DNA of 64,000 nucleotides from Cyanidioschyzon merolae (Eukaryota): NCBI GenBank assembly GCA_000091205.1, contig AP006502.2. One strand, written 5' to 3'. Below the pieces are notes generated by a model. The model made no database searches and was not told where the DNA came from. It saw only the letters and a list, made by a program, of their open reading frames with translations. The translations under genes were made by a program, and so were the position numbers. This document shows, piece after piece, positions 7,221-53,626 of the stretch (position 1 is its first letter; every line of letters begins with the position of its first letter).

Positions 7221-7638
7221 CCTACAAGAGAGCAGGACGAAAAGAGAGTCCAGCGTTTCCAAAGCCAGCGTTTATCTACAGCAAGCGGAAAGCGTCGAAG
7301 AGAACTTCCGCACAGTCTGGTGTTGGTGCCACGATGAAGAGACCCAAAGTTGGTGAGTACGCCAATTTCCCTTTCTGGACACTTTCAATTTTCTTCTGAA
7401 ATGGGTGTATCAGCGTATTCTTAACTGCAATATCTAGTTTGATTCTAACGCACGATCGATGCATCCCATCAGAGAGACGCTCATGCAGCGAATCCAGGAA
7501 GCGGAGAAGACGCTCTACGAAGCGCGTCGTCGCCCAGAATACGTCGCTGCGGCGGCATCGACCGGGGCGAAGCGCGCCTCTACGCTCAAAAAGCGACGTT
7601 TGTCTCCTGGTACGAACTAGACCTTTTCATCAGGTGCA

Positions 7639-9363: not shown

Positions 9364-12300
9364 AGCCCGTGCGGCCCCAGACCGAATGTTGTTTTTGTAC
9401 TGAGTTTTGAAATGCCACGGTAGCTTTTTCCGATCTCAGTGACGAACATAGAATGATCGTGTAAGCTACAGCGCGTGAAGGGAGCACCAGATTCTGAAAT
9501 GCACCGCATGAATGCCGCGTCGGACACTAAGTACTTGACCTCGACATCAGTTGTCGAAGCTGTCGCTTTTCCGACCAACCGTTCTTTCCCAGAGGAGCAT
9601 TTCTCGTAATATGATGCGAGCCAGGTAAGAGAAATATATATAGCATATATGCGTGTGATTTCGATTCGAAAAGCATGCCGTAAAAACCAACTCTCCTTTA
9701 TGGGCATGATCACTGCATCAATGCACGAATTCCAAATCCGGATATCCTGGTGCCGGAGACATCCGTACCATCCAAAGCATTGGGATCTGAGCGTCTTTTC
9801 ATTCGTGGTCACAAAGATGGGTCCTCACTCGACTAGGTATGCGCCCAGAGCGCTTTTGTTTATGCGCTTCCAACGATTCCGGTGGTTCCATTCATGTACG
9901 GCAAGCCGGACGTCTTGAACGACTAGCCTAGACGACGAAGAACCCCGTCTGTCAACGCCGATCCGGAGACTGCTGGGTAGCTCCGCAAGCTTTTGCAGAA
10001 TTAGAACGCCGGAAAGCGCTGTTCGGTTGTTTCGGTCACCGAACCTGGATTGGCGGCTATCCAACCTATCAACTACAAATCACGTCCGAAGCTTTCTCTC
10101 TGCGACCTCGTCCAAAAGGTCCGCTAGGCGGGCTGCGACGGAAACCGTGACGGCCAACGAGTTGTGTTTCATGTGAGACCCAGTTCGTTCGATGTAGCTG
10201 GGTACCGTCAGCGTGCAGTCCTGTGCTTCACTAGAGAGCCTCGGTAAAAGCCCCGGCATCGAGACAATCTTGTGTTCTCTTCCGTTGCCGTGGCGCCGAC
10301 GTTTCGTCGAGACGTGCCCCTCGCCTGAACTCCCGTCTGTGAGCAAGTTGTGTAGTGAAGATTGCTGGAGGGAGGACGCCTAAGCGCCGCTACCGGCAGC
10401 GACTGGTGACGTGTGACCCAAAAGACGCGCAAACAGACATTCTCCGTAAACCTGCGAGAAAGGTGTACCACACTTCTTACATTGCTGCTAGTAAGCATGT
10501 AGCTGCTTACATCGTAGGGGTGCTCGCGTCCCTGTCTGCCCGTTGCGAATCAACGACAACTGGACGATGCCGCTGGTATCGTACGTTGACTATGTTGCTG
10601 AACGAGCGTCGTTCGAATTTCAGATCAGAGGGAGCTGCAATGTCGTTATGAAGCGCATTCCCCAAATCCAGTGTCTTCATGGTACCGGTACGTCTGCCGA
10701 TAGAGAGTGCAGCAGTGCTGAAAGAGCCTGATTGTATGTGCGTCCTTTCGGCGCTACGCGTTTGTCAAGGCGGACTCTGGTTCATCAGCAGAGAAGACTT
10801 GAAGATCCGAAGAGCGTCATCGTGCCCAGCATGCATTGTCTGCTCGCATTCCACATGGTCGCTGCTGAATATGTCCACCATCCCGATGCCGCTGAACGCA
10901 CTGAGCAAATCTTTTGGGTCGAGCATCATTCCCGCAGACCAGTCTGGACTGTGGGTAATGGAGCATAGGGTCAGAAACAGACCAGCGGTTGCTTGCCTGG
11001 ATGCCGGTATCCATCGCGCAACCCGGAACCGTGTCCCATGAAAATGGACCAAATATCCTCTCGCTCTGTTCCTGCCTTTCGAGTTTTCTGCTGAACATCT
11101 CTTGAGAAAGACATCCACGATATTCAAAGTGCAGCAATCGCGGCTTACGAATTTATATGCACTTTAAATATTCTCCGACGCCTTTTCTAAGTAACTGCTT
11201 CGACTCGTTGCTGCTGGAGTTCGTAATCTCACCGGAATCGCCACGATTCACATCGCCATCGGCCGAACGTTTCGTTCCATAACCCTTCTCATCGAAGAGT
11301 TCGTACGCACAAGTCTCCAATCCTCTCCTTTCCTCGCACACGGCATGCTTACGTTACACACTCTTCAGGTTTCCGATCAAGAATTTTCAAGGCAATTCAT
11401 GGGCAGAACAAATCGCGCTGCTGGGTTGGTGAATAAGGATACTCGATGTTGTAATTTGACGACTCGCTCACAAGCTCATGTCGAAAGCGCACAGAGCTTG
11501 TCGGGTCAAGTAATCTATTCCATTCGAAAAACGAATCTTCTCCTCTCCTTAAGCATCCATACAGCTGCATTCTACACCAGCGTGGTCTCCCGCACGAGAT
11601 ATGCTCCCTGAGGCTCTCGTTTCTTTGTGTTGGATGGAAAGCGGGGCCTTCAGCTCGGAATTGCGTCGTTGAACTTATCGCTTCCAGTAAGGTGTATAAC
11701 ACCTTTTCGCACGGAGGAACCGTAGACGAATCGACGTTTCTCGATCTGATCTGCAGCCTGGATTTTGCCTCCGGCACTCGTCTCATCATGGACAACACCG
11801 TGTCCCAGAAACCGTCTATCGAAAGGAAGACTGCTTGTCCGAGGGTGCAGCGGACAGCGCACTCGCCGAGCAAAACGCCCAGAACAATGCAGTGATCGTT
11901 GGGTACTTTATGGGCCGCGCGAACGGGGAAGGGCATTTAGGCTCGCCTTCCGTACTCCTTAGGCGCATGGAACGAGCGATGAGGCATGTGTTCACGTGAA
12001 ACAGGGCGGGCCTCGGAGCAGGTGGAGGTGTGGCGGACGCATGCGAATACCCGATGACAGCCAAATTCCACAGCTGCGATGTGCGCATCACGGCTGCACA
12101 CAAACGAGTTCGTAGATCACAATTTCCGCCCTTGCACCAAAAGCATCGACTGTAACCGCAAGTAACGAAAAAGGGAGTTTATCGCTACCATCAAAATCCT
12201 TCGTCAGGTGAATAGGGAGCTGAAGCGAAAGGGGAGACAGACGTATTTGAAACCTTCCATAAAAGCTAGAAAATAGAGTAGTCACAGAAAAAGCCTGCAG

Positions 12301-12442: not shown

Positions 12443-12625
12443 GATCCCATCGAGCCGATGCCCTCTGTGGAATGGCAAAGCTGTTCTGTTTTTGTGCTGC
12501 ACCCGCTCCAGCTGTTTAGGCGCTGTTGCGGATGCTCTCGGCAGGCGCTAGGCACACGATAGAACGAATGAAACGACCAGTATTTCCGAGAAGAAGTATG
12601 GGTCATGTAACTTGGAAGCAGCATA
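12443..12625 (+). repeat. Copy 2 of the ~190-bp dispersed repeat, 318 bp upstream of the eIF1 ATG
   Basis: See copy 1 (2518-2706). Confidence 0.6.
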
Positions 12626-13284: not shown

Positions 13285-13749
13285 GGAAAATGTTTCACGA
13301 AGGTCTCCAAAACGACCATCAAGTGAAATACACGTGGCGGTGGGGTTACTCCACACAGCTTCCGTACCAGCGTGAGCAGCGGTGTCTGGGCTCTTGGCTG
13401 CTTGCATCAGTGCGCTCGCAGAATACTGATCTTCGGGGAGCGCGAAGCTCCAGGGCAGAACGCGACCTGTGCGCTTCACGGTGGAAGCGGTTTGCCTCTA
13501 TGGTTTGGAAGAAAATAGGTTCGATTGAACCCAATGGTCATGTCCTGCGGAGCGAGCAGGACCAATCGAGGACAGAGAATGTTGCGACGCAGGTAGTGCT
13601 GGATGCGTGGCAAAACATTCAGAGGCAACGGTGGCAATATACCGCCTGCGCTACTGATATGCGTGTAAAAGGTAAGATGAATGGACTGGACAAAAGAAAT
13701 CGCAGCCTCGCCCAGACCTTAGGATAATTGCCGTATTCAATGCTGTGAC

Positions 13750-15205
13750 ACCCCCGATGCGTGCCATCGAATGCTTTTTTGTCAGTGTAGAGCAGGAGAT
13801 GGAAATCAAGATGCAATACACCGTAGAGATCGTAGGCGATTTCCCTGCAGGATAGATATTCTTAACTGAACAGTGCAAGGAGGACTGCATTAATCCGTCA
13901 GGTCAGTCATACCGAAATACACAGATAATCGACGAACGCTGACAGAAACAAATATATGCGCTCCACGCTAATAACAGATATTCTCAAAGCGTGCTTGCGG
14001 TCCTTGGTAGTAAACGGACCATTGATCACCTCACGAAGAGCAATAGCGACGATAGCGGACACATCGGCGTCTCTGTTTCTCAGCAGTTGGATCGTCCGGT
14101 CCCGCAAACAATGGGGTACAGTCGCAAAATTCCTAGTTCAAGCACCGCTATCTTTCACTGAAATCGCAATGGCAGAATTCCTAGAAGCTTGCGATCGGTA
14201 TGAAGCACAGATAAGTCGGTTTGTTTTTTTTTCAGTCGATGAGACTTCCCTCTGACAAAACGGTCTCAGCGCATATGGGTACTCGCGGAGCAGGAAGCCC
14301 CCTGTATGCACGATGGAAATCGAGAAGAACGAGGACATCTTCCTCTGTTCTAACTGCAGGGAATTCATCTGGCGGCCTCCGTTTCGCTCGTAGAGAGGGC
14401 TCATCCAACAGCATCGTTTTCGTAGCATCATTCAAGACTTTTCCCCTTACGTCTAATGACTTCCATCTATCGGACAACGGAAAATTTCACCGTTCTCTGT
14501 GCGTTGGAACTTTTGCCGACGCTAACGGGGTAGAGCTGCTTTTCATTCCTGTGTAGGCCCCGTGGTTCAACTCCATCGAAGGAGCGTTTTCTATCGTGAA
14601 ACTTAACGATCGCGTCGCTGGACAAGTCCCTACGGCTTCCAGCACACTGGGGCACTTATTGACTTTCTAGCTCTGCGAATTTCCATACCTAAAGGCATAA
14701 AGAGCAGCTTTCATGCGAAGAATTACAAAATCCAAGGGAAGGGTATGGAGATGGAAATCGAGGATCCTGGAGGCCCGCCATCCTCGGCTGCCGGAAAAGA
14801 ACGAATAGAATCCTCTTCTCGCGAAAAGCCGAACGAAGAAGAGCCAGTGACGAAGAAGAAGATGGGAAATGGGTAAGGACAGTGGTTCGCCCGATGGTAC
14901 GATGACGAGACTGTTGTGACACAGGGAGCACGAGTACTAGTAATCCTTGCAATAATGTGTTCAACCAGCGGCGGGAAACGCATGGAGTTCTTGAACCGAG
15001 ACTTCAACGCCGCCATTCATATCAGAAGATGTGCGGTGCTCAAGACAAGATCCGCGGAGCTGACACGACCCAACTTCCTGGGGCAGTCTCTCAGGCTCGA
15101 AGTGCACGGTGAAAAACTGCAACCGATAGCAGGGGAACGGTCAGAAACGGCTGGGAGGCGCCTGTGAGTTGGTATATATATGCAGCCTATGGCAGCGAAA
15201 CGTTC
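13750..15205 (+). mobile_element. Long copy (A) of a TnpB/Fanzor-like DNA element, ORF degenerate (frameshifts and stops). Fills the spacer between the eIF1 and CCT2 3' ends
   Basis: C-terminal peptide CSTSGGKRMEFLNRDFNAAIHIRRCAVL gives the RuvC-III DRDxNAAxNI hallmark. About 1.4 kb is collinear at nucleotide level with copy C (49415-50800, minus). The 3' module ctctcaggctcgaag...ggctgggaggcgcctg...tatatatg is shared with copies B, C and D. Confidence 0.55.
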
Positions 15206-15287
15206 TCGCGCCATGAACCGCAGGCAGGATCTGGTGACTTGCATTTCGAGTTTCTTCTGCGCATGACTGGGACGTGCAAGGACCATT

Positions 15288-20508: not shown

Positions 20509-22025
20509 TGGACTCAGAAACGTCCAATGGTGGAACTCCGTTGTCATCTACCGATTGCCGACGAAAACCCTTCCCAGTGTATAAATACGGTGCTCCCTCG
20601 TTTCTGGATTGCTGAAACCGACCTCACCAATGACTTCATCCAGGAAATCATCCAATATCCTGGCTCATGGCCACAGATGTTTCTCGACGAACGTCGATAG
20701 CGTTGCAGCACAACGCCAGTACCGCGTACGAAACGATTTGCCTGAAAGTTCGGTCGGCAGAAAGTCGCAGGACGCTCCGCAAGCACCAGATATTACCGAA
20801 TGCCGATCGAGTCGCTCAAGTCCTAGTACACCGTGTGCTTGTGTACATTGCGGGGTGTGGCGTATCACAGCAAAGCAGGCGCTCAGCTTGGATTGCCTCG
20901 CCATCTGGTGTTCGGTCTGCTTGCCATACGCCATGCTGCGCATCCGGCACGGAGTTGCGCTGCTCTTGTTCTCTACCAGTTTCAGCAAGCACCCGTGCTC
21001 GTGATGTGTGGATGTCGTCCTGAGCGCATCGATGGGAGTGTTCCAGGGTCCATTCTCGCACACGTTGGACGCCCTCGTTGAAGGGGCAGGAATGCAGGTG
21101 CTGTTCGCTACCGGACGTGTATCGCGCTGGACTCGCGCCAAACGACCCGACTTGTCAGCCGTTTCCATTGCCGCCCTGTAAACGAGGAACCTCCGGTGAG
21201 ACGCGTAAATGCACTTCGTAAAGTCGCTCGAGTGCTTCGCGCTTGCTCACAAACACCAGCTGCAGCTCGCCAAGGAGCCCGCGCACCACACTACACATGT
21301 GTCTCCGTGCATCTCGTGGATCTACGTGTAACGTACGCGCACGATACCCAGTAGACGCGGGACGAGCAAGAACGGTCGGCTTCGGCGGCGGACGCTGCGT
21401 CGCTCTGGAGGGATCAGCTCAGGGTCGCTCTCGCAGGTGTCTTGCCTGCGAGCGGCGGAGTCCCTCTTTAGTGAGTACCCGTGTATCGGCGTATCAGTTC
21501 TCTCCCGAGTGAGGTCTTGTCGAGTGCGAGAAACATCCGTTCGTGGTGTAGCACAGGCTGGCCATTCCGGCACGGAATCCTCAGCATATGGATCAATGCG
21601 GGACGGTCTCGAGTAGAGGCATGCGTTTCTCGTTGTCCAACCGCGTCTCTTCATCAGCGTTTGCATCAGCCATGCGAAAGCTGTGCTTTCTTTGGTCTCT
21701 TCTATGGTATTTCTCGGAAACGTGTGTTATGAAATGAATCGACGAGGAGGTAGTCGTTCAGCTAGAAATTCAAAAATTCTGTTTTCGGTGCTCGACATTC
21801 AACATAAGGCGTAGGCGGTGTGATGCCCATGGACCGTCTGCGTGCAGGACACTTGACTTGCAGAGGTAAACCCATTTTCGGAAGCGAAAGCGGCAGAATC
21901 AAGTCTTTCCGCGAACATTCTCTAGTCGGCAGCACATATTTCTTTTATTGCATACTTGCGAGAAAAACTAGCGAATAGGCGGGTTGGTACAAGTGCTCCA
22001 GAATTCACTGCTCCATGTGTAACCA
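20509..22025. repeat. Copy 1 of a 1,517-bp direct repeat (R), non-coding. Begins 38 bp after the stop of the 19041-20471 gene
   Basis: ORF-track ORFs at 20544-21732 recur identically, offset +4645, at 25189-26377. Boundaries were set by eye at tg(g/t)actcag...tgtgtaacca. About 6 mismatches in total. Confidence 0.85.
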
Positions 22026-23364
22026 ATTCTTTTCTGATGACAAAACGTTTACATCGACCATGGATCCGAGGATTCGGAAAGTATAATGGCTTTCGGGAAA
22101 GCGTCCATCATGAAGCATCTAGCTTCAAGTTCTATCACCCATACATGCTCTCTGATATACTGGTCGTTTCGTATGTTCTATAGTGCGCCGACTAGCTGTT
22201 TTGAGCACCCGCCGTAGCGCTTATATACCGCTGAAGCAGGTGCTGCACGGAGACAGAACGGCTTTGGCATACCGCTGAGGGCGTCGGCTCGAGGCGTGGT
22301 TCATCGGACACGGAGTCGGAGTACTTAATCATTCTAGGAGCCTGGAAGCTGCGCGGAGAGACGCACTGCCTGCGGCGGCACGGTGCGATATACTGGGCGT
22401 CCACTGCGACCAGGGCGACGCCCAGACGCAGCATACACGCTCCTAGTCCCAGATTGAATTGCATTGCGGACGAGTAGCTCAGGTTTCTTTAAAGAACCCG
22501 CCACTGAAGGAAGCATGAAGCACTAGCTAGCCCCGAAGACTCGTCCGGCTCGCGGGACCTTCCGCCTAGAAGGTAAACTTTCCAAGATACTGAAACTTTT
22601 CCCCATTTCAACGCTTACAATTAAGATCAAACGAAACTGTTATCGAGTTGCTAGTCAGTGCATAGTTTCTGTTTTTTTTTCGCATCGACGTCGATGCTCG
22701 GTGGATCAGGGCCTAGTTCCATTCAGCGGCAGCGACGGCGTGCCAGAATCCTGATGGAAGTGCTTTAAGAGGCTGCTTGTTTGAAGGTTAGCCTATTTGC
22801 GCTCGGGTCGCTGCTCTTTCTATATTGTCCGGGAAGAGTTCTTCGACAAGCATTGACCTTAGACGGCGAGAAGCAGCGCTTAGAGTCACAGCAAAGCTGC
22901 TTTCTGCGAAAACTGCGCGCAGGACAAGCGGTGACGCTTCCTTCGAGAGCGGCGCTCTTGGTTTTGGTGCGACAGGAACGGCTCGCAGTTCGGTAGACTT
23001 GGGTTTGGGTGGAGCTCGGAGATTTAAGGTGGTGCGCGAGATTGATAAGCGTAAACGAGTGGCGCGTTCCGCAACGTGCGATTCTTCGTGGCACCGAGGA
23101 GAACGCACGCATCCTCTAGCTTGAGCGTCACGCATTTTGTTTTGCTTACGTTGAGGCCTTCATAGATTGGTGGCGTCTTTGACAAGATCCGGGAATTTTT
23201 CGTTGCCCAGGGGCGAGATTTTTGAGACCAGGGGGTATCCCAGCCAAGTTACCGGAACTGCACCGCACTCGTGGCCGGTGTTCAACGAACGGCGATTTTG
23301 AGAGTCTTCTGAGCACGTATCCAGCGGATATAGTAGCGTTCACGAGACACGTACGTGCTTACCC

Positions 23365-25153: not shown

Positions 25154-26670
25154 TGTACTCAGTAACGTCCAATGGTGGAACTCCGTTGTCATCTACCGAT
25201 TGCCGACGAAAACCCTTCCCAGTGTATAAATACGGTGCTCCCTCGTTTCTGGATTGCTGAAACCGACCTCACCAATGACTTCATCCAGGAAATCATCCAA
25301 TATCCTGGCTCATGGCCACAGATGTTTCTCGACGAACGTCGATAGCGTTGCAGCACAACGCCAGTACCGCGTACGAAACGATTTGCCTGAAAGTTCGGTC
25401 GGCAGAAAGTCGCAGGACGCTCCGCAAGCACCAGATATTACCGAATGCCGATCGAGTCGCTCAAGTCTTAGTACACCGTGTGCTTGTGTACATTGCGGGG
25501 TGTGGCGTATCACAGCAAAGCAGGCGCTCAGCTTGGATTGCCTCGCCATCTGGTGTTCGGTCTGCTTGCCATACGCCATGCTGCGCATCCGGCACGGAGT
25601 TGCGCTGCTCTTGTTCTCTACCAGTTTCAGCAAGCACCCGTGCTCGTGATGTGTGGATGTCGTCCTGAGCGCATCGATGGGAGTGTTCCAGGGTCCATTC
25701 TCGCACACGTTGGACGCCCTCGTTGAAGGGGCAGGAATGCAGGTGCTGTTCGCTACCGGACGTGTATCGCGCTGGACTCGCGCCAAACGACCCGACTTGT
25801 CAGCCGTTTCCATTGCCGCCCTGTAAACGAGGAACCTCCGGTGAGACGCGTAAATGCACTTCGTAAAGTCGCTCGAGTGCTTCGCGCTTGCTCACAAACA
25901 CCAGCTGCAGCTCGCCAAGGAGCCCGCGCACCACACTACACATGTGTCTCCGTGCATCTCGTGGATCTACGTGTAACATACGCGCACGATACCCAGTAGA
26001 CGCGGGACGAGCAAGAACGGTCGGCTTCGGCGGCGGGCGCTGCGTCGCTCTGGAGGGATCAGCTCAGGGTCGCTCTCGCAGGTGTCTTGCCTGCGAGCGG
26101 CGGAGTCCCTCTTTAGTGAGTACCCGTGTATCGGCGTATCAGTTCTCTCCCGAGTGAGGTCTTGTCGAGTGCGAGAAACATCCGTTCGTGGTGTAGCACA
26201 GGCTGGCCATTCCGGCACGGAATCCTCAGCATATGGATCAATGCGGGACGGTCTCGAGTAGAGGCATGCGTTTCTCGTTGTCCAACCGCGTCTCTTCATC
26301 AGCGTTTGCATCAGCCATGCGAAAGCTGTGCTTTCTTTGGTCTCTTCTATGGTATTTCTCGGAAACGTGTGTTATGAAATGAATCGACGAGGAGGTAGTC
26401 GTTCAGCTAGAAATTCAAAAATTCTGTTTTCGGTGCTCGACATTCAACATAAGGCGTAGGCGGTGTGATGCCCATGGACCGTCTGCGTGCAGGACACTTG
26501 ACTTGCAGAGGTAAACCCATTTTCGAAAGCGAAAGCGGCAGAATCAAGTCTTTCCGCGAACATTCTCTAGTCGGCAGCACATATTTCTTTTATTGCATAC
26601 TTGCGAGAAAAACTAGCGAATAGGCGGGTTGGTACAAGTGCTCCAGAATTCACTGCTCCATGTGTAACCA
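25154..26670. repeat. Copy 2 of the 1,517-bp direct repeat (R). Begins 74 bp after the LKB1 stop codon
   Basis: See copy 1. Identity about 99.6 %. Confidence 0.85.
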
Positions 26671-29128: not shown

Positions 29129-32100
29129 GCAGACACACCCTTCTCCGGGTTTGCGCTGTGCGTAAGTCTCCTATCGACAAGGTAAGCGCGTTTGAAAAAC
29201 CCGCTGTACGCCCTTCTGAAGTCAACTTTTCGAATGAAGACCCAAGGGGCTTGTAAAAAAACTGGCAGTACGGCTCGTGGTGCGATTGCTGTGCTGCCCC
29301 AAAGCTCTGGCAAGCAGCTCTGCCGCGAGTGCTCGCTGCCTACAGTCTGCCTTTTAAGTGACACCACACTCGACGACTGCTGATGCCAGTCTGCTTCCTC
29401 TGAAGACCTTCAAAGGCTTACCACAAGTGTTATCGTCTAAACGCTCCCAGTGTGTGGACGCTGAGGTGCCTCAGAGTATGCGGCGAAAACTCGCCCACAA
29501 CACGTCAAACATTCGAAGCGCATACCGCGGGATACTCGATGGTGCGTTCATGAGGCCGATTCGCTGCGCAGCGCGCGGCTGCCGCGGGCCTCAGACGCCA
29601 ACGATCTCAAATTGCGACGGTGATGGCGTGCGCGTCTGCCCGAGGTGCGCGCAACAGTCGCTGGCAATGATGCGGAGTTCTTCGGGATTGGGCTGGTGCG
29701 GAGGCCGCAGCTGGAGGCGGCCAGCGTAAGGATCAGATCCTCTGCACAACGGACTATGAAACGTATTGGGGCCGCGCCCCAGGTCAGATACCTCTGTGAT
29801 AGACATCGAGGTAACGCGCTCCACTGCATGAGTATTGGAACAGAGATTCCACGCATGAACCAGGGTAGCATCTGTACGTAGGGGGCATAGCTGAATCGAA
29901 CAAGCTCATGATCTTCGATGGAGCACTACTCCAGAACGGATAGAGCCTGCAACAGCCAGCAGTGAAACAGAGACCTTCTACCTGGTTCCTGGAGGCTTCC
30001 GCTGCTCGAAACAATCCTGACTTGATATAGGGTCCTGGAATGTGAAAATTTCCTGCTTCAGCGATAGCAGGGATATGAGGCGGTTGCATGCGCCGCCCCT
30101 GACGTTGAGAATCTTGTAACACGGGGCGCGTCGCTTCCTGCGAATCATGGCAGTGGCTCCACGGATGAGGCTATCTCGGCCAGCTTGGCTGCGATCTCGT
30201 GCTGATTTCGCTGCAATTGTCTCGCGTTCCCGGCTCGAATGCTTCCTCAGGCAATGGCGGGGGTCTCTCACCGCCCCAAGGGCCGTCCATGGAATCCCAC
30301 TCGTGCGATCTGGTTGAAAACGTTCCATATATAAATACAATGGAGCTTTCGAATTTCTGGTACACACTGTTTGTCGGAAATAAGCTCGTGATGCGGGCTT
30401 CCTCTCGTTCGCATTGTCGTCCACGTGACCGAGTAAACATCTAAAGCGATCAACTCGAACTGAGTCTCATGGAGCGATCCACGGTGCGCTGCATTATGCG
30501 TCCTGCGACCAACGCAGACCGCAGTATCCGCGAGGCAGCAATTGCAGATCCTAGTGACCGTGGAGCGCCTCGGCCAGACGCAAACACTGCGTCTCTGACA
30601 TTAGCGTCGTGCCGGGTGTTCTGTCAAGCAAAATTGTCCAGTGAGTTTACTACCATAGCATTCGGGGTAACAGTCTAGACTTCGTGTTGAAGGACGTTCA
30701 ATTGCCACGGCCGACTGTGAGTACTCCAACGAACAGGCTATTCGTCGCGAGGATGAGGTGCCCAGCGATTGCTGTACGATCTGTTCGTTCTATTCGCTTG
30801 GCTCGAGCCAATAGACCTATTGCGGGCAAAAAGGGCTCAAACCCATCGAAGCCAGGATCCTTTATGGAAACTCTAAACGCTACCTATTAGAACGGTATCT
30901 CTGTATTCAGCAGGGAAGCTGAAAATGAACAGGCTCAAGCGGCTGCACGAGAGCTGCCGCTGATCAGCGCTCATACACCACCTGCTTGGCGACCGAGGCC
31001 ACTTGTTACAGCCTGTCCAGTATCCCTGTAAGGAACAGAGGCCCAGTCCGGTAGACCTGCGAATTCGTACGGATATCCGCCGGTTGCGACGCATCCCAAC
31101 GGACATCTGGTCGAAGATCCCACAGACAGGGATCCCCTGGCTCGTATAAACGATCCTAAACCCAAAACATTCATGTTCAAACCCGAATTCGATGCTTTCG
31201 CAAAAAAACGCTTTTCTCAGAAAAGAACATTATCGACAAGTACCTGCCAGATTGATTTGATGGACAGAGCAGTTGCACTCACCATAGACACCTGATTGCT
31301 TGATTGATATCGGCATCTTGGAGAGCGTTTATCATGTTTCATCCTACCTCCGGGTTTTACCAGCTACCACAGGTACCTCCCTTGCGAGACAGCGGCCATT
31401 TCGTACGATCCACTCAGCGCGAAGCCTGCTACGGGCGTCCACAGTGGCGCCCACAGCGCCGGCGCGGATGCAGGACGGAGTCAGAACGCCTTTACCACAC
31501 CACTGGAGAAATCAGCTCGAAATGTGATTCACTCGTCACAGGGTCGGGACGCGTGGATATTCTGGGATATAGTAGACCGCTCAGACAGACCTACTGCTGG
31601 CACTGGCGCGAAACGAATCTCCAGGAGACCGTATCGACCAGGGCGGGGCCGAGACGCAGGCCGCCCTCTCCGGCTACAGAAGAGACTCTATTGCGGAGAG
31701 GTTGCTCCGGATTTGCCACAGCTTTCGGTACTGGAGGCGCACGGTGCTCCATTCTGCATACTCCTCCAACTGGCAGGATCTTTGTCCTAGACAGTAACCC
31801 TCCGAATGTACATAAATCATTCCTCGGTTCATCTCTTGCCTGGGACGCGGGGAACATCGATGAACTACTTGCCAGCTAGCACACAGTTTCTTTTGCCATT
31901 TTCTTTCTAGCTGCTGTCCAGTGGTTAGGTTCTCTCCCTAAAACGAGCCCATAGCGGACGACGCGGCACCGAGTACAGCTGCATCGGACGCGTCTCGCTA
32001 CACTCCTGTCAGGCAAAATTTGCACGATTCCTCTCACGTATCTGGGATATGCACACTAAAGCTTGGACCTCGCTCGTGTCGTCAAAACCAGCCTACGCAA

Positions 32101-38948: not shown

Positions 38949-39019
38949 TAGACTGCTTCGCTCACTTGTGGTTGTCTAGAGCGTATGTATGCTCAGTGAA
39001 ACTAAAAAAGTCCCACGAC

Positions 39020-39515
39020 CGTGTAGTGTATATATGCATCCCATTGCAGATGCCTCCCGGACTTTTTCGACCGGCCGCCCACTACTGGTTGTAACGTCAT
39101 CCCGTACAATTCGACCCTGAGCGGTTCTCCCACAAAGTCGGCTCGTATCAGCTCCGGGGGTCTCTTGTCCAGCACTGCACATCTCCCGATGTTGATAGCA
39201 GCGTTAAAGTCTCGGTTCGCGAACGCTATGCGTACCCTGCCTCTGGTTGAACTCACCATTGCAAGGATTCCTCGAACTTGTGTCCTCTGTTCTACTACAG
39301 TCTCGACCTCGTCCCGTCAGGCGAGCACCTTTTCTCGTCTACCTGTCCTCTTTTTCTTCGCCGCCGCGCGCTTTCCCTTGCTCGATGAAGGGCGAGAAGA
39401 GGATTTTTTCCTTGTTTTCGGACAGCCGGCAATGAGGCCCTCTAGGATCCGCGACTTCCATCTCTATACCTTAGCCTTTTTACATTTGTAAATGAACGCA
39501 CTTCGAGAGCATTTG
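39020..39515 (-). mobile_element. Short, internally deleted copy (B) of the TnpB/Fanzor-like element: 5' terminus joined to the 3' ~470 bp
   Basis: Peptide RIAFANRDFNAAINIGRCAVL, the 3' module and the ...gcatatatac terminus. The 5' junction aaatgct(c/t)t(c/t)cg matches the 5' end of copies A and C. Confidence 0.5.
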
Positions 39516-40678
39516 CTCTAAACCACGAAAAAAGCATTAAATGATACGCACTTGGCGCCAGAGCACAGTTGAGGTGAAGTGCTATGACAAGAATCCTGCA
39601 CGTGCCAGGTCCGCAGCACGTCTAACATGCTCGTTGCTTTGCTCAGGGCAGAAGGTTGAGGCGCGAGCCTGATTAGCGTTGACGCGATCTGTGTTCCCAT
39701 GAGCGAAGCTACATTCTGGTGCATCAGGCGCAGTTGAGCGGATATCGGTGAGCTCACAAGTCGCCACAGGGTATGGTGCTGTGTGCTAGCCAGTCACCGC
39801 CCGCCACGTAGAACCCCGATAGCAGGACACGCAGGATACGATTCGGAACGACGAGCAACCGGGGATCGGTGCTGACCTTCTTCAGCGCGTCCAGAGCGGA
39901 GGCGAACCCTGTGCTCTATGTTTTTTCGTTCTCGATAATAGTTCCAAGACGCTCAATAGCTTGCGCACCCGCTTCGTGTCCAGGATCCGTGAGCGTGCTT
40001 CCACCAAGCGCCAGGTGCGGCTGTCGTTCTGGAACGCTACCAGCTGTTGCGAAGCAATCGTCAGCGTCAAGGGTGCAGGCATTTCTCGAATACGGCAGCG
40101 TGGAGTAGCTCTGAAACGCACGTTCGTACTTCAGGGTGCAAATCGCGACCTGGTAGCCGTCGATGTCCGCGATGGTGCGCAGAGAAGATACCAAACGCAC
40201 CTATCCATCCATCTTCCCAACTATGCATGTGTGCATGTGTGCGTAAAAGCAAGCAGGCGGCTATCCATGCGTCTATGTGCACAGGCAACCAGCAAGCAAG
40301 CAATCAAGCAAGTTGCTTTCTCAGGTAGAAGACGATATTGTGACCTGTGCGCCACGGTCTTGTGGCCATTCAGCAGCTACTGGTATAGGCAACGCAGCAG
40401 GTGCAGGAAATGACTGCGGACTCCAGCGAGCGCTGTATCGATATTGGGACACATGTTGTGAGAGCTGAACTGCAGTTTATTGGTGTGCGTGTCCTTCCCT
40501 GCGGGGTTTCCGTCCGTCTGGTATGGGTCTCCCCATGAGCGCGTACGCAATCAGGAAACATCGCTTCGTAACGCTCGCCGGTTCCTTTCGATGACGTTTC
40601 TGCGCTCCATGCGGAGCCTCTACATAGCCGTATCTCGTTCATGATGCTAATGCATGACTTTCCATGATCATGCATACC

Positions 40679-46563: not shown

Positions 46564-49302
46564 TTATTCAGGGGGCGGTATACTGAAAGGCACGGTCTGC
46601 ATAACATTTTGCTCATTCCGAACGATGTTAGCTACGACCATATTCGCCAACATGGCCAGCTCTGGCGGAACTGCGGCGGATAATGCCAAGCCGCTCAGAA
46701 GCCGATGGACACCAAGGCTCTGCAGGGTTGCCCGGCCAGTTGGCGTAGCGCTCAAATTACACAATGCAGCTAATGCATACTGTTGTGATTCAATATCGAC
46801 GCTCTGGGTCGCATATTGAGCAAAGTAGGTACCAGCACCCAGCTTGAGCAAGTGTGGATGCAAGTCGACGTTGTTGGTCAGTTCAGCGAGAGCCAGCAGC
46901 GCCGCTCGAGCCGTCTCTGGATCCGTTCTTCGCTGCGCAACAGCGGAAGCAAGCACAGGCAGACCGTTGGCCTGAGCGATTCGAATACTGTTCTCGATCT
47001 GTTCTGCGAAAAGAGACAGGGCACGCACGCCATATCGACGCACGCTGGGGTCCGGGTCGGTTGCCAGACGGACGGCTGCTTCGACACCGCCAGCTTGCGC
47101 TGCCATCACCCGGGACAGCCCCCCGGTAGAGACATTAAAGAGTGCTCGTGCCAACTCTCGACGCAACGAGTCGTTGTTTCCAATCACCTCTGCTTGTACC
47201 TGATTACCAGACGCCTGCGCCCAGAGTGTTGGCAGCTTCATCAAGATGCGCAAAGCACCGCGAGATCCCAGCAGATCCAACTTGGCGTTGTCTATGCGCG
47301 AGAGATTGGCTATTGTGTGTACAAGTATCTGTGCTTCATTCGTTGACAGGCTTAAGCGTCCCTGCAAAATGCCATACAACGCTTGACAAAGCCCCTGGTT
47401 TGCTAACAAGTACAACGTATCGCTGTCCTCACTGAGTTGCCCAATGAGGCGCAGGAGCGAGCGGCATGTCGGCGAAGGCACACGAGAGGTCACGCCCTCT
47501 GCATCTGGGACGCAATCCGCTAAGCGCCGCACAAGGAACGATGCATCGCGCGCTATTAGCTGAACTCGTATTCGGGCGGATTGCATCATGACGGCAAAAG
47601 CGTCCAATGCTGCTGCTCCAACCGTGGCATGCGGCGGCCGGAAGCGATCAATCCCCTCGAAGGTTTCAGCTATGCGAAGCAATTCCCGATCAGCGCCATG
47701 GAGGAGGAATGCACGGCTCAGGTGTTCGCCCGGAGCTCCCGGGACTGAACACAGCGCCGCAATTGTTTTGCATGCGGCACGCTGGGGAAGCTCCATCTGG
47801 GCTGCGTCTCGCTCTGGACCTGTGTCGTTGCGACCGCTGAGATTCTCACGGAGCACGTCGAGCAGTGTCTCTGGGATGTGACATTTCTCGAAACGATTCG
47901 CTGCTCGCATATCAATAGCGGACGTCGTGCCAGGGCTCTTCGCGAATGCTGCATCCTGCAGTATGCGGAGCGCCATGGTGCGCAGTCCCGGCTCGTCCGA
48001 TCGTGCGATGACTCGACCAAGTCGCTCCAGTGCCTCCTCGCTGGTCAGGGCGGCCAGCATGGGAGCTTGGTTCGCAAGCGAACGAAGACCAGAAAGCGCG
48101 TACTGTGCAACGCTGGAATCATCTGACTCTAGCGCAGACAAAAGTTCCCGAAGAAAGTTCCGCTTCGGGGTGGCAAAAGCTGCGAGCCTTGAGACGTTCG
48201 CTATGCACAGTATGAGCGCTCTTTCGGTCTCTCGAATTTGCGCTTGTGTTGAAATCAGCATGGTTGTGTTCTTTTGTGCCTCATGAACGCTGGCCAAAGC
48301 ACAAGCGAGCGTCTTCATGAGGCGTGTTTCATCGGCTGAGGTCGCTGTGCTCCAAATGCTTTCACTTAGTGCGAGATTGGCAAGAATCCGTGCAACCTGC
48401 TGAATCAGCGGTGCGTTCAGTTGAGACCAATCTACTGGCTTCCGCTGGCGCCCGAAAAGGAACAAAAAGCCGCTAGTCATTCCGCCACACTGCGCAGCGA
48501 CACCTGCATCCCGGTTGAGGCAATGCAGGAGACTCCGCAACAGCGGTGTATCTCTGAGCTGCGAGTGGGTTTGTTTGTTCCGCACTATTTCCCCCAGAAT
48601 CTCCAGCAACGTCGTGCGCAAGTCAACGTCTATGTCCGGACGTTCCAACGTCTGGGCAAGGACTCCCCCGACTCCACAAGAGGCGAGTTCCACGGCAGTG
48701 CCCTGCTGCACAGCATACTGGAGGATTTCGTTCGCAGCCTCTTTAGCCGCCGCAAGTTCGGAACTTTTCACCACATCCATGAGCTCCCTGATACGTTTCG
48801 TGCAAGTTTCATCTGTTCGTGGGGAGCTCGTACCTGTGGACGCTGCACCACCGGGCCCGGTGTTCACGCCCGCGATCGTGATCGACTCTGAACTCGCGAC
48901 GCCGAGGTTCGCGCTCAGACCTGTCGGAAAGCCATAGAGTGCCACAAACGTGCAAGTTCCTACACTCAGCGCAAACTGCAACAAGCGCTTCGCGGTACCG
49001 TGCAAGCCACCAACAGCTGGACTCTGCGTGAGCGGGCGTGACTGCCACGGGAAAGCAGCACCTTGCCTAGGCCCTAGTCGCGCCGTCGTTTCCGTCCTAA
49101 ACCCTAGCGCTTGCTGCGAACTCTTTCCCAGCAACTTCTGCAGCGGACGCGCGATAGGCAACCGCTGCACAGACTGAAGCCTCCATAAAGTGAGCATGAT
49201 CGCGGGACCATGCAAGCGCAGCCCCAGTTCGCAGCAGAAGCTGCAGCGATGAATAGCGTATGGGAATTGGCTCCGCTTCCGCGCGGAGCAGGGCGTGTGC
49301 AT
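46564..49302 (-). CDS. Armadillo/HEAT-repeat protein (912 aa)
   Basis: 2.7-kb uninterrupted ORF with recurring ~40-aa helical repeats rich in L/A (e.g. ...ALSGLRSLANQAPMLAAL..., ...ALLALAELTNNVDLHPHLLKLGA...). Confidence 0.55.
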   Translation of the reverse strand: MHTPCSARKRSQFPYAIHRCSFCCELGLRLHGPAIMLTLWRLQSVQRLPIARPLQKLLGKSSQQALGFRTETTARLGPRQGAAFPWQSRPLTQSPAVGGLHGTAKRLLQFALSVGTCTFVALYGFPTGLSANLGVASSESITIAGVNTGPGGAASTGTSSPRTDETCTKRIRELMDVVKSSELAAAKEAANEILQYAVQQGTAVELASCGVGGVLAQTLERPDIDVDLRTTLLEILGEIVRNKQTHSQLRDTPLLRSLLHCLNRDAGVAAQCGGMTSGFLFLFGRQRKPVDWSQLNAPLIQQVARILANLALSESIWSTATSADETRLMKTLACALASVHEAQKNTTMLISTQAQIRETERALILCIANVSRLAAFATPKRNFLRELLSALESDDSSVAQYALSGLRSLANQAPMLAALTSEEALERLGRVIARSDEPGLRTMALRILQDAAFAKSPGTTSAIDMRAANRFEKCHIPETLLDVLRENLSGRNDTGPERDAAQMELPQRAACKTIAALCSVPGAPGEHLSRAFLLHGADRELLRIAETFEGIDRFRPPHATVGAAALDAFAVMMQSARIRVQLIARDASFLVRRLADCVPDAEGVTSRVPSPTCRSLLRLIGQLSEDSDTLYLLANQGLCQALYGILQGRLSLSTNEAQILVHTIANLSRIDNAKLDLLGSRGALRILMKLPTLWAQASGNQVQAEVIGNNDSLRRELARALFNVSTGGLSRVMAAQAGGVEAAVRLATDPDPSVRRYGVRALSLFAEQIENSIRIAQANGLPVLASAVAQRRTDPETARAALLALAELTNNVDLHPHLLKLGAGTYFAQYATQSVDIESQQYALAALCNLSATPTGRATLQSLGVHRLLSGLALSAAVPPELAMLANMVVANIVRNEQNVMQTVPFSIPPPE

Positions 49303-49414
49303 CCCTCGATCCGCCCCGGGCGAGCGTGCTGCATGTCTTTTACGTACAGAACTGTTCTACCTAGAGCGCATCCCCGGATGATTATCCAGATACCTGTCAA
49401 ATAAACAAAAAATG

Positions 49415-50800
49415 TCCTGGGACCATATAGGATAAATTAATACTCATATGTAGACACCTCTCCGCCCTTTTCGACTCGCAGACTGTTACGCATTCAGTTT
49501 TGTCCAGACAACCTTCGAGCCTGAGAGGATACCCCGCGAAGTTGGATCGCGTCAGCTCCGCGGGTCCCGTCCTCAGCACCAATGATCGCCTGATGTTTAT
49601 GGCAGCATTAAAGTACCGGTTCATGAACTTCGTGTGGGCTCTGGCGCTGGTTGCGCTCATCAATGCAAGAATTGCGGGAACTCTCGTACTCTCTGTACCA
49701 TTTGATACTCGGTCAGCTCTCTGTGCGTTTCGATCGCAAAAGCGCTTCGCGGGCACTTCTCCAGGTCGACCTTCTGAAGTGGAGACCCCAGCTCACCCTT
49801 TTGTTTATTTTAAAACGAGCGAACTTGTTTGTTCGTTTTGGTGAGGACGTTCCCGGAAGCGGGAAAGACTTGCGGATGCAAGACCGGATGTATTCTGGTA
49901 TCACTGTGCGCTGAACGCTTAAGCGATTCTACCAATGGAGCGCTCAATAGGCTTAATTAAAGAAAAGCGTCCTTCGATGCGGTTGAACCACGGAACATAC
50001 GGAGGAATGCAAAGCAGTTCTACTCCGATAGAATCGGCAACAGCTCCAACGCAAGGGGAATAGAGAAATGCAACGTTGTCCAATAGAAAAGCGTCGCCAG
50101 ACGTCAGGGGAAAGTCTTCAATGGCTCGACGTAATGGGCGCTGTTGTATGAGTCTTCTCTACGAGCGAAACTGAGGCCGTAAAATGAATTCACCCCAGCT
50201 AGAACAGAAGATGGTGTCGTCATTCTCCGCGAGTTCAACCGTACATTCAGCAGGCGCCCAGATCTGCGAGTACCCATATACGCTCCGACCGTTTCATCCA
50301 AGGCAAGTCTCATCGAATGAAAGAACAGACCGACTTCACTCTGCCTCAGATCGATAGCGACGTTCCTGGAAACTGTCGTTGCGATTTCGATGGAGGACGG
50401 TCGTTCATGGCATTGGACATTTTCGCGACTGTATCCCAGTGTTTTTAGGACCATACGAACTAGCTATTGAGAAACAGATACGCCGTTGGCGGCTACCACT
50501 GTCGCTTTTGCTTTCCGTAAGGTGATCAACTGGTCGTTTGCTGCCATTTAACGCAGTCAGTCTTTAAGAATATCGGACATTGTCGCAGAGCGCATATTCA
50601 GGGTTCTTTCAGTGTTCCTTAGGTATCTGAGTTCTTTTACGTGGATGACCTGATGGAGGAATGCAGTCCTCCTTACACACGTCAGTAAAGAATATATATA
50701 TCCTGCAGGAAATTTTTCTACGATCTATAGAGTACATTGCATATTGACACTGATCTCCTGGTCGTCACCGCGAAAAAACATTCAATGACAAGCAGCAGTG
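49415..50800 (-). mobile_element. Long copy (C) of the TnpB/Fanzor-like element, degenerate. Its 3' terminus lies ~110 bp upstream of the ARM-repeat gene ATG
   Basis: Peptide FMNRYFNAAINIRRSLVL on the minus strand. About 1.4 kb is collinear with copy A, including upstream blocks (FFHSMRLALDETVGAYMGTR matches A's FFQSMRLPSDKTVSAHMGTR). Confidence 0.55.
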
Positions 50801-50885
50801 CTGGAACACAGTGAGTTGAGGACGATCAACGGAATGCTTGCTCGTATAATCTTTCATCTCAAGTGTTTTGCCCCTCTGCTGCGCG

Positions 50886-51430
50886 TCATCAAATGCTTTT
50901 TCGTGCTTTCTAGCAGACGCGTATGAACTGCGTTTGTTCTCAAAAACAAAACATATAAGGAAAAAATTATGGACATAGAATTCGGGGATCCTGGAGGATC
51001 GCCATCCCCGAGTTCCAGAGAGAAACTGAAAAATTTCCCTCTCGCCAACCATCGAGCGAAGAAGAGCTAGTGATCGAGAAGAAAAAGAAAATGAAATGCG
51101 GAGATAGGCGAAAAATCGTGTTTAGCTCACGGGACGGTGACGGGATTGTAGTGGCGCGGAGGGCACAAGTTCGCAGAAGCCTTGTAATGTTGAGTTCGAC
51201 TAAAGCGAATAATCGTGTAGAGTTCATGAACCGAGGACTTAACGCTTCCATCAATATCAGACGATGTGTAGCGCTGAAGGAATTAGCCTACGTACTTCGT
51301 GGGGGAGCCTCTCAGGCTCGAAGTGAACAAGAGAAACTGAAATCGATAGCGGGGAGTTCGTCAAAAAAGGCCGGAAGCGCCTGCTAGTTGATGTGTATAT
51401 GCACTCTGTGGTCGCGAAACCGATTTCGTA
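50886..51430 (+). mobile_element. Short, internally deleted copy (D), head-to-head with copy C (~90 bp between their 5' ends)
   Basis: ORF MIEKKKKMKCGDRRKIVFSS...NRGLNASINIRRCVAL plus the 3' module ctctcaggctcgaagtgaacaag...gcgcctgctagttgatgtgtatatgcac. The 5' junction is aaatgctttttcgtgctttctagc. Confidence 0.5.
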
Positions 51431-51444
51431 TCATCGTCCATACA

Positions 51445-51690
51445 CGTAACTCGAATGTACTACAAAGTTTAGGTCTTTCCCGTTTTAGCCAGGGCAAGCA
51501 TTTGCGGATATTTTTTCCGCGACTACTTCCTTTCCCTCTCTCTGATCTCCGACTTTAAAATGCGTAGGTCTCTCTTTCCCCTCAGCTCTGCTGTTGCGAA
51601 TCGAAGGAGGTTGATGGCATCGTTCAAGTTCGGACGACACAACACTATGCTGTATCCAATGCATTTAATTTACAGGTAAAATTTGCACTC
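51445..51690 (+). repeat. Copy 1 of a ~260-bp dispersed repeat (X); second copy at 56558-56815
   Basis: Shared blocks: actaaagtt(t/c)aggtct(t/c)t(t/c)cc, ccgac(t/c)t(t/c)aaa(a)t(g/a)cg(t/c)(a/g)g(g/c)tctct..., aatc(g/a)aagga(g/t)gttga(t/c)ggca(t/g)cg(t/c)tcaagt(t/c)c, cagg(t)a...atttg. Confidence 0.5.
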
Positions 51691-53626
51691 AACGCACCGC
51701 TTCCCGGTTCCATCTTCTCGATTGGATGCAGCATCGGTGCGCCCATTGCGGTGGTGATACTAGGCTTTGGTCTGGTCTTCCCGTATGTCCATCCGAATGC
51801 TTCCACTTCCTCATGCTGTGCTGTAGCTCGTAGAAAATTGCTCGACCGCTCGGGACATGTCCTTGAGCGGTAGAGAGGCTCGCCTCAATGCCCTCCTCCG
51901 TTCTCGTATCCGGTGCTGTACTCTGTGATCACGCCCTTATGCTAAGCGATCCCCGCGTCGAGCGCCCTCTCCGCTGCACATGCAAGGACACGCGGTTTCA
52001 TTCGAAAAAGAACTTGTGGAACATGGAATTCCCCATGACGTCAAAAGTAGTCGAACGACAATTCCTACTGGAGACCGACACAAAAAATAAGATATTTCGA
52101 CGCTGTATTTGTGAAAAGCGGCAGCGCTCTCTCCAATGGAAGCCATCCCTGCGATAACGAAAGCCCGAGTTCAAGACCGTTTCCTAAGCGAACGTAATAA
52201 ACTGGAGCATCTCGGAGCAAATAGCGTGAGAGGTAATGCTGCCGTTGAGTTGCATTTATTTTTCGGCCACAAAGGGTGAAGGATTGGCTCATCGAACGGC
52301 ATCGATTATTAGACGTGAGAATTTTTGTGAAATCTACGCACGAGCATGTGAGCAAGTCATCAGGAGGCAACGTCGAGTTTCTTTCCTCGCCCAACGAGAG
52401 GCGCGAATGGCGCACCCTCGAATCGCCTTCAACCAGCATGATTGAAAACCTGAACCATAAGTGATTTGAGTATGTGACTCGTATGGAAAGAAGAAGGGAG
52501 GAGGCTTTTACGAGTGTACTGGACAATTATATCTCTTGTTTACGAAGCATGTTCGATGGCATCGCGTCTCCTATTGAAATCGATGACGTAACGAAGTCCA
52601 GTGGCACAGCGTCAAATGCGCCACTCCAAAGAGCGCGACCTAGAATCCTGAAATTCGTTATGAATCCATGCGCCTTTACTTCAGAACTTTGGATCTCGAG
52701 GCTGTACTTGTAAGAAAGTTCAAGAAAATATTCAAGGCAGGAACAGAACGAAGAGTTCAATGTTGCAGGTTCATCTGACATAGGGTAGATGCCGTGGGGC
52801 CCACTCAGTCTCACTGAATAACTTGCAGGCTCGGTTTCGCCACAGCAGATCCTGCACGAAACATTCATATTGGTGAGCTTGCACAAATGGCATTTGGATG
52901 CATTCGGAAAACACGGACCGCTAGCATTGATCCAATGCACACAGTTCCCGTTCCTGGACGCTGGACGGCCGTTCATGTCGGCGGTCGACCAGCTCCACAG
53001 CGTGCAGCTTGCGCATCTGCCTGCGCATCAAGGATGAATGGCGAATCCGAAACAGTGTCGATGCGTTTCCGGATGCCGTTGACGTGCCCCATGAAGCATG
53101 CCGGGCAATCGCATTCGAAGTATAGCCATCGCGAACGCGCTTCTATGGGGTCATCAGGCATCGGGCCGCATTTGTGATCCAACACTTGGTCGTCGTCGAT
53201 CATTCTTGGACCTCTCTGCCCCAAATCCGGTATCCCTATGTGCCTTGTACCCTTCTTCGTTGCATCTAGAGAAGATCACCAGCAAAGACACCTCTGGAGT
53301 GCTTGCGCTCAACAGCGGCATTGATGCCGCCAACGGGGCTTCCCGCGTTTAATGATTCCGCGACACCTGCGCTGCGGCAGGACCAAGGTCAGTAGCAGTT
53401 TTGGGTTTCGTGCGCCGCCCACAGAGGGTACTTCCACGCACGCGCTCTGTGGGTGACTTTTCCAGCCAGTGCAGCTGCTCAGGCTTTCGCGCCAAGCGCG
53501 TATCTGCCTGTAGTGGAGCGTACTCTCGGGGGTGAAACCTGGTCCGGCGCAGGCGCTTTTGCGTCCTGGAAAGAACGCCCACGTGCGTAGCAGCACGCCC
53601 TCTGCCGGGCTGCTTCCAAAGCTCCA

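Follow-up and report, generated by a model that had tools for sequence, protein, structure and literature searches.

Fanzor1 relics in the window

The DNA analysed is a stretch of 64,000 nucleotides (the window) of the nuclear genome of the intron-poor red alga Cyanidioschyzon merolae 10D, with a G+C content of 53.8%. Transposon relics are found in it at ~10 per 64 kb, roughly 8 times the genome average. Repeats were confirmed by blastn of positions 49201-51700 against the whole window, with matches well above chance expectation, and the nhmmer profile of the common module detected exactly four places, corresponding to copies A, B, C, and D. MAFFT alignment of the four copies revealed a module of ~470 bp common to all and an additional ~900 bp in A and C only. 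Copies C and D are arranged head to head (5'-to-5'). The copies and their neighbours are as follows (the deletion types are defined in the next section; 'long' and 'short' refer to the presence and absence of a transposase segment).

13736..15255, plus strand: copy A, 'A-type long' relic, with the transposase segment at ~13795-14712, Fanzor codons 1-57 at 14745-14919, codons ~645-729 at 14925-15173, and the 3' tail
38988..39586, minus strand: copy B, 'A-type short' relic, with both junctions as in D
49397..50826, minus strand: copy C, 'C-type long' relic, with ends good to about +/-10 bp
50827..50843, unstranded: spacer separating the two copies C and D at their 5' ends, about 17-24 bp according to where C is taken to end
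50844..51440, plus strand: copy D, 'A-type short' relic without the transposase segment
15288-16901, minus strand: CCT-beta gene, with a 537-aa ORF identical to C. merolae 10D BAM83286.1
2529-2785, 12450-12616, 22036-22681, and 31273-31823: four solo TE-N2 copies, located by mapping the CMe-1A consensus on the window

The translation of the common module contains FxNRDFNAAINIRRC, the last motif of TnpB/Fanzor proteins. All four copies were matched by both the published CMe-1A consensus (blastn) and the CMe-1 protein (tblastn): C aligned with consensus nt 2738-3092 (E 1.6e-45) and with aa 612-648 and 625-729, and D with nt 785-969 and 2809-3084 and with aa 645-723. Single Fanzor proteins gave no match in Pfam and PDB, and a profile was needed; that of seven intact or near-intact metagenomic relatives had SpuFz1 (8GKH) as its sole significant PDB match (E 8.4e-6). 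Judging from these matches, A, B, C, and D are decayed members of CMe-1, a known Fanzor1 (eukaryotic TnpB) family of C. merolae, and the term 'TnpB-like', applied to them in an earlier reading made from the letters of the DNA (the sequence-only reading), was appropriate.

CMe-1A has been described as a 3169-bp consensus encoding a 734-aa protein, with about 150 copies, each sharing ~80% identity with that consensus (Bao & Jurka 2013, Mob DNA 4:12, PMC3627910). According to the same study (PMC3627910), it is without TIRs, its TSD is undetermined and its class unknown, its 5' 635 bp represent a separate repeat named TE-N2_CMe, and the Fanzor core motif, D...[TS][TS]xx-zinc finger...RD, is that of a RuvC-like nuclease. 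In the 10D genome, 253 copies of a 3.2-kb interspersed repeat with a WSV486-like ORF had been reported earlier, described as randomly distributed and as transcribed (Nozaki et al. 2007, PMC1955436); this repeat is the CMe-1 family. At both the DNA and the protein level, the copies in the window are clearly homologous to CMe-1A in the 5'UTR and the N- and C-terminal parts of Fanzor and in a portion of the 3' tail, and, like CMe-1A, they show neither TIRs nor a readable TSD. They differ from it in starting at consensus nt ~785-799, without the TE-N2_CMe part and nt 640-785, in their last ~60 bp, which are unlike the CMe-1A tail, and in their large Fanzor deletions. They also represent an older subfamily, sharing 59-72% identity among themselves in the common module, whereas CMe-1A copies share 79-86%.

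The family sample comprises ~12 units. L006 and L014-L017 represent copies at two unrelated hot-spring metagenome loci. A scan of viral contigs for further copies of the family found none.

Structure of copies C and D and two classes of Fanzor deletion

Copy C consists, in order, of a 5' leader, a DDE_3 transposase pseudogene, the Fanzor 5'UTR, Fanzor codons ~612-729, and a 3' tail. Copy D consists of a 5' leader, Fanzor codons ~1-57, a deletion junction, codons ~645-723, and a 3' tail. Their components are as follows.

50758..50826, minus strand: 5' leader of C, common to A, B, and D (CMe-1A consensus nt ~795-866)
49824..50757, minus strand: transposase segment of C, ~930 bp, a frameshifted DDE_3 pseudogene (Pfam PF13358)
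50297-50320, 50066-50086, and 49961-49993, minus strand: transposase motifs of C, namely D1 in SFDETCLG, D2 in LLDNVAF, and E in PWFNRIEGRFS, respectively
49795..49835, minus strand: C-type deletion junction, Fanzor 5'UTR (AAAATAAACAAAAGGG) fused at the start codon to consensus nt ~2738 (ELGSPLQKV...), with 'ATG' microhomology; also present in L018
49442..49808, minus strand: Fanzor1 C-terminus remnant of C, frameshifted (consensus nt 2728/2738-3092, aa 612-729)
49586..49621, minus strand: RuvC-III motif remnant of C, NRYFNAAINIRR, with the catalytic Asp of 'RD' changed to Tyr (reads RY)
50969..51128, plus strand: Fanzor N-terminus remnant of D (MDIEFGDPGGSPS...) to the A-type junction, where consensus ~1075 is joined to ~2836
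51229..51264, plus strand: RuvC-III motif remnant of D, NRGLNASINIRR, with the catalytic Asp changed to Gly (reads RG)

The 734-aa Fanzor gene has been gutted in all four copies, none of which is a full element. In the A-type deletion, consensus ~785/895 to ~1075 (the leader and codons 1-57, MEMEIEDPGG.../...YDDETVV) is joined to ~2836-3090 (codons ~645-734), and codons ~58-644 are missing. In the C-type deletion, the gene is missing from the ATG to codon 611, the 5'UTR being retained up to the start codon and followed by nt ~2738 (ELGSPLQKVDLEKC, codon 612). Copies A, B, and D and L006 align straight through a single A-type junction, and L014-L017 carry the same junction. L018/L019, which represents another locus, begins at consensus 2737, as in the C-type. 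The transposase segment is present in three A-type members (A, L006, and L014) and in both C-type members (C and L018), and is missing from the A-type members B and D. Because the same junction is found at several unrelated loci, each deletion occurred once and was followed by the spread of the deleted element. Only the last region of the Fanzor core motif is left in C and D, in mutated form, and all upstream motifs have been deleted.

The similarity between A and C had been described as collinearity over ~1.4 kb. This holds for the transposase segment (C 49961-50794 vs A 14592-13758, 72.7% over 843 bp, E 4e-128 in blastn) and for the last ~290 bp (C 49513-49696 vs A 15102-14921, 72.8%), but not for the middle part, where A keeps Fanzor codons 1-57, absent from C, and C keeps codons 612-645, absent from A. 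D aligned by blastn with both A-type relics, i.e. 50968-51420 with A 14744-15201 (67%) and 50880-51276 with B 39550-39170 (66%). B and D had been proposed to share one deletion architecture, and indeed both junctions are common to the two copies, which places them in one deletion class: a 5' leader and a short piece of the 5' end of the gene are followed by the 3' ~350 bp. The idea that C is the plain parent form of D was ruled out by the difference between their deletion classes. It was also suggested that the four copies comprise long forms and short internal-deletion derivatives of a cut-and-paste family. The presence of a DDE_3 remnant and the common deletion class of B and D agree with this suggestion; however, all four copies are deletion derivatives, A, B, and D of one deletion and C of another.

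A DDE_3 transposase pseudogene in the long copies

The long copies are not full TnpB-like elements; their extra ~920 bp proved to be the remnant of a different gene, a frameshifted pseudogene for a DDE_3 (PF13358, IS630/Tc1/mariner-type) transposase. The pseudo-proteins of A and C, whose frames were rebuilt across the frameshifts, scored 43.1 bits (4.8e-11) and 26.9 bits (E 5e-6), respectively, against Pfam DDE_3; the former is above the cut-off of 28.6 and the latter just under it. The DE, DN, and NxIE motifs occur in the remnant in the expected D, D, E order, and the remnant of A could be aligned with the PUl-1 Mariner transposase (26% identity over 112 aa, E 6e-6). The segment follows the 5' leader, precedes the Fanzor 5'UTR, and has the same orientation as the Fanzor gene; it was found in A, C, L006, L014, and L018, i.e. 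in five of the seven old-subfamily copies examined, whereas it is missing from the published CMe-1A consensus. The full-length CMe-1A copies L005, L010, L011, and L013 do not contain it; L005 includes an intact 752-aa copy at 6001-8259. When the rebuilt transposase was used as the query in a word-based protein search, three decayed relatives were the only matches, with no intact gene among them, and none of the units recovered combines an intact transposase with a full Fanzor.

Since the segment occurs together with both deletion types, the simplest ancestor would have contained the leader, the transposase gene, a full Fanzor1 gene, and the tail. Either the segment was lost from the short form, or it was gained by the long form. 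On both sides it is flanked by an ~8-bp direct repeat (TAGAGCAG-like), which could be the footprint of an insertion or could have served as a substrate for its repeated loss. Rather than being ancestral, the segment may thus represent a nested insertion that was spread by recombination.

Element ends and the 3' module

The copies start at consensus nt 785-799, corresponding to positions 13736 (A), 39585 (B), about 50819-50826 (C), and 50844 (D). On the 3' side, conservation extends to position ~49397 (C) and ~51440 (D). Thus about 17-24 bp separate C and D at their 5' ends, rather than the ~90 bp estimated in the sequence-only reading. That reading also placed the 5' terminus of D at aaatgctttttcg. 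D does keep the 5' end together with a 3' part, but aaatgctttttcg lies ~45 bp inside the boundary; it was ruled out as an element terminus because homology to B and to the family consensus reaches ~45 bp further out.

Comparison of the 5' ends with the reverse-complemented 3' ends of A, B, C, D, L014, and L018 revealed no TIRs, with no score above those of shuffled controls and no consistent register. A TA dinucleotide occurs near the 5' ends of A, B, D, and L006 and not of the others, the ends being placed only to about +/-10 bp. As neither TIRs nor a TA duplication could be read, the DDE_3 domain is the one feature that points to a Tc1/mariner mechanism. Short TIRs may have been lost through decay, as only ~60-70% identity is left.

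The guide (omega) RNAs of TnpB and Fanzor are encoded at the 3' end. For this reason, and because the last ~350 bp are spared by both deletion types, a conserved fold was looked for in the 3' module. The values obtained with RNAalifold were -11.8 and -5.5 kcal/mol for alignments of 10 and 12 copies, respectively, with covariation of about zero. A conserved fold gains no support from this, although decayed copies in a coding alignment are poorly suited to such an analysis. No match was found in Rfam.

Sequence decay and strain comparison

No ORF longer than 119 aa is present in C or D. In a metagenome scan with the neighbouring gene, three related strains (L007, L008, and L009; 98.7-99.4% identical) were recovered, and both C and D are present in all three without any indel; the search for empty sites that had been recommended therefore yielded none in these strains. 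Among 10D, L007, and L009, differences occur at 21.7/kb in C and 18.5/kb in D, compared with 16.9/kb in other intergenic DNA and 6.5-7.3/kb in the two flanking genes, of 912 and 825 aa. By the density of strain differences, C and D evolve like unconstrained DNA. The inverted pair had been thought capable of mobilizing the intervening DNA. This finds no support: only ~20 bp lie between the copies, all reading frames are broken, the catalytic Asp of the surviving motif is mutated in both copies, and strain differences accumulate as in neighbouring intergenic DNA.

An interval of 392 bp without strain differences (50642-51034; P about 0.04) is centred on the C/D junction. Its length is twice that of the second-longest difference-free interval in the intergenic region of 4.3 kb, and the repeat family has been reported to be transcribed (Nozaki et al. 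2007, PMC1955436), so that one might consider the junction region to have been co-opted and to be under constraint today, e.g. as a bidirectional promoter or another cis element. We regard this as improbable, because the significance is marginal, only three sequences, all closely related, were compared, and the interval was chosen with the data already in view; moreover, the region shows no ORF, no Rfam match, and no conserved fold.

Origin of the head-to-head pair

In the shared module, C and D share 59% identity, less than any other pair among A-D (64-72%), and the identity of D with A, B, and L006 is higher (66-69%). This lowest similarity among the four copies, together with the difference in deletion class, indicates that C and D arrived separately. 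We consider it likely that they are two separate, long-inactive insertions of an old CMe-1 Fanzor1 subfamily.

The following course of events may be proposed. The ancestral unit, of ~3.3 kb, would have carried a DDE_3 transposase gene followed by the 734-aa Fanzor1 gene in the same direction, in the layout of PUl-1. By analogy, the transposase would have performed cut-and-paste transposition and Fanzor1 would have served as an accessory RNA-guided nuclease. Two internal deletions would then have removed most of Fanzor1, the C-type joint forming with 'ATG' microhomology. The A-type deletion would have given rise to A, L006, and L014, with the transposase segment, and to B and D, without it, and the C-type deletion to C and L018. 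Because each class is found at several unrelated loci, the deleted forms would have kept transposing, and the short form represented by B and D, which has neither gene, would have moved in trans. One copy would have landed within about 20 bp of the 5' end of the other, and all copies would have decayed after the spread. TnpB and Fanzor proteins are currently viewed as accessory nucleases, not as transposases. Copies without nearly all of Fanzor1 still reached new loci, which fits this view.

Two explanations that treat C and D as parts of a single structure were weighed against separate insertion. The 3' modules of the two copies form distant inverted repeats (49513-49629 vs 51221-51323) with the transposase remnant between them, as would be expected if C and D were one composite or foldback-type unit that moved as a block, with its 3' modules as long inverted terminal repeats and the transposase gene inside. 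However, these arms are the most divergent pair among A-D, the halves belong to different deletion classes, and each half occurs solo elsewhere (A, B, L006, L014, and L018). Furthermore, the combination of a C-type and a short copy was found at no other locus among those sampled, and the pair at L011 is built from different members. A composite unit is therefore very improbable. Alternatively, the 5'-to-5' geometry and the very short spacer might reflect an ancient inverted duplication (palindrome) of one long copy, one arm of which later lost the transposase segment, a loss that the ~8-bp direct repeat would ease, and gained the other Fanzor deletion. This explanation is largely refuted and hardly deserves more credence. 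Both junctions of D are shared with B, its Fanzor junction also with A, L006, and L014, and the junction of C with L018; a duplicate of C would be without Fanzor codons 1-57, which are present in D; and D is nearer to A, B, and L006 than to C. A recent inverted duplication was ruled out by the low identity between C and D.

Separate insertion leaves two ways of accounting for the closeness of C and D, chance and site preference. The window is dense in transposon relics, as described above, and the repeat was called randomly distributed (Nozaki et al. 2007, PMC1955436); two independent insertions may thus have come to lie close together by pure chance, with no site preference. On the other hand, 253 copies in 16.5 Mb would give ~0.1 pair with ends within 25 bp per genome, and a second 5'-to-5' pair was found in L011/L012. 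This pair consists of two full CMe-1A copies, 78% identical to each other, whose Fanzor units are separated only by the TE-N2 part of one copy and about 8-24 bp. Given this second head-to-head pair, the closeness of C and D is probably not due to chance, and we consider the chance explanation possible but rather unlikely. Two pairs in this small sample of ~12 units, a rough estimate, hint that the 5' boundary attracts insertions, and the nested insertion hotspot envisaged in the sequence-only reading is possible in view of the second pair. In a more far-reaching and doubtful form of this idea, which we hold to be unlikely, the 5' boundary of CMe-1/Fanzor units would be a preferred landing site for both copies of the family and TE-N2_CMe, 5'-to-5' pairs ~10-25 bp apart would be a regular product of insertion, and such targeting would also have produced the published CMe-1A consensus, which has TE-N2 at its 5' end. 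If this were true, targeting by the element's own nuclease, guide RNA, or transposase would represent natural self-directed insertion by a Fanzor-bearing transposon. In any case, the recurring 5'-to-5' arrangement provides a testable lead on target choice in a finished 16.5-Mb genome.

Comparison with known elements

The CMe-1 family itself has been known since 2007 and 2013, and C and D are ordinary pseudogene relics. In the searchable literature we found no earlier account of three points, namely that an old CMe-1 layer is linked to a DDE_3 transposase, that two classes of deletion were amplified, and that the head-to-head geometry recurs. The occurrence of a DDE_3 gene beside Fanzor1 in the older CMe-1 copies, as in the Mariner-Fanzor elements of oomycetes, suggests a likely class for a family that was published as 'classification unknown'.

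PUl-1 and related Fanzor1-carrying Mariner elements of Pythium, as well as PGv-1, have been described, PUl-1 having 24-bp TIRs and TA duplications (Bao & Jurka 2013). The old CMe-1 copies resemble PUl-1 in compactness and in gene order, i.e. a short leader, a DDE transposase gene of ~300 aa, a short gap, and Fanzor1 in the same direction. In contrast to PUl-1, neither TIRs nor a TA duplication could be discerned in the C. merolae copies, and no intact two-gene unit was recovered. Eight class II elements with bacterial-like transposases have also been reported in the 10D genome (Nozaki et al. 2007, PMC1955436). These are similar to the transposase relics described here in their low copy number and weak similarity to bacterial (IS630-type) transposases, but were not linked to the Fanzor repeat in that study; they are probably the same DDE_3 relics as those in A and C.

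SpuFz1, a Fanzor1 of Spizellomyces punctatus (8GKH), is matched in its RuvC/zinc-ribbon half by the profile of the intact C. merolae relatives. It is an RNA-guided DNA endonuclease, whereas in C and D no more than the ~90-120 3'-terminal codons are left and the catalytic Asp is mutated. Finally, the deletion classes resemble the Ac/Ds-type and MITE-like internal-deletion derivatives of class II elements in their shared ends, their lost interior, and the recurrence of the same junctions at unrelated loci. No MITEs were reported from C. merolae in a de novo survey (PMC3964958). The CMe-1 relics differ from such derivatives in that they have no TIRs and in that the passenger nuclease gene was hit first, the transposase gene being kept in the long forms.

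Structure of the CMe-1A family

Four TE-N2_CMe sequences in the window, the repeat that forms the 5' 635 bp of the published CMe-1A consensus, are solo copies without an attached Fanzor unit:

2529-2785, minus strand, solo TE-N2_CMe
12450-12616, minus strand, solo TE-N2_CMe
22036-22681, plus strand, solo TE-N2_CMe
31273-31823, plus strand, solo TE-N2_CMe

Conversely, TE-N2 was present in none of the four decayed old-subfamily copies in the window (A-D). This distribution suggests that the published consensus combines two parts, each mobile on its own.

The ~920-bp transposase segment of the long copies is flanked on both sides by a ~8-bp direct repeat (TAGAGCAG-like), which bounds it in copies A and C and in L006, an old-subfamily copy at another locus:

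A, 13795/14712
C, 50757/49824
L006, ~7600/8530

This repeat could be a target duplication generated by nested insertion, or a repeat favouring precise loss of the segment.

The Fanzor ORFs of intact or near-intact CMe-1A copies contain a ~77-bp unit (consensus nt 2117-2195) repeated two to four times in tandem, at three loci:

L005, 7221-7376
L010, 10540-10621
L013, 1399-1478

These units account for the difference between the 752-aa and 734-aa proteins and for the repeated 'KHEDEKEA...QEVQDND' blocks in metagenomic proteins. In the younger CMe-1A subfamily, the 3' tail contains a hairpin with an 8-bp stem (GCCGCCA...TGGCGGC) followed by a T-run:

CMe-1A consensus, nt ~3125-3155
L011, copy 2, ~11385-11410, with a single compensatory change (GTCGCCAC...GTGGCGAC)

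This hairpin is not present in the old-subfamily tails of copies A-D.

Transposon context and the C/D junction

The 64-kb window contains ~10 transposon relics, a density ~8-fold that calculated for the whole genome from published copy numbers, and the 50-52 kb bin containing the C/D interval has the lowest G+C content (48%) among the 2-kb bins of the window. A 1517-bp direct repeat is also present, its copies being 99.6% identical and 4.6 kb apart:

20509-22025, first copy, ending 10 bp from a TE-N2 copy
25154-26670, second copy

Both copies contain a 167-aa ORF with ~31% identity to aa 560-697 of the CMe-1 Fanzor protein. The repeat appears to be either a second Fanzor-like repeat of much younger age or a duplication that arose recently.

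When strain 10D and two related-strain sequences (L007 and L009) were compared, the 392-bp interval 50642-51034, centred on the C/D junction, contained no differences, representing the longest such run in the 4.3-kb intergenic region (P ~0.04; the next longest was 189 bp). Outside this interval, C and D exhibited 18-22 differences per kb.

A second 5'-to-5' pair, composed of full-length CMe-1A copies with 78% mutual identity, was found in L011 (5767-11410), and the same pair in L012. The gap between its Fanzor units consists solely of the TE-N2_CMe part of one copy and ~8-24 bp. This pair shares the geometry of the C/D pair in the window.
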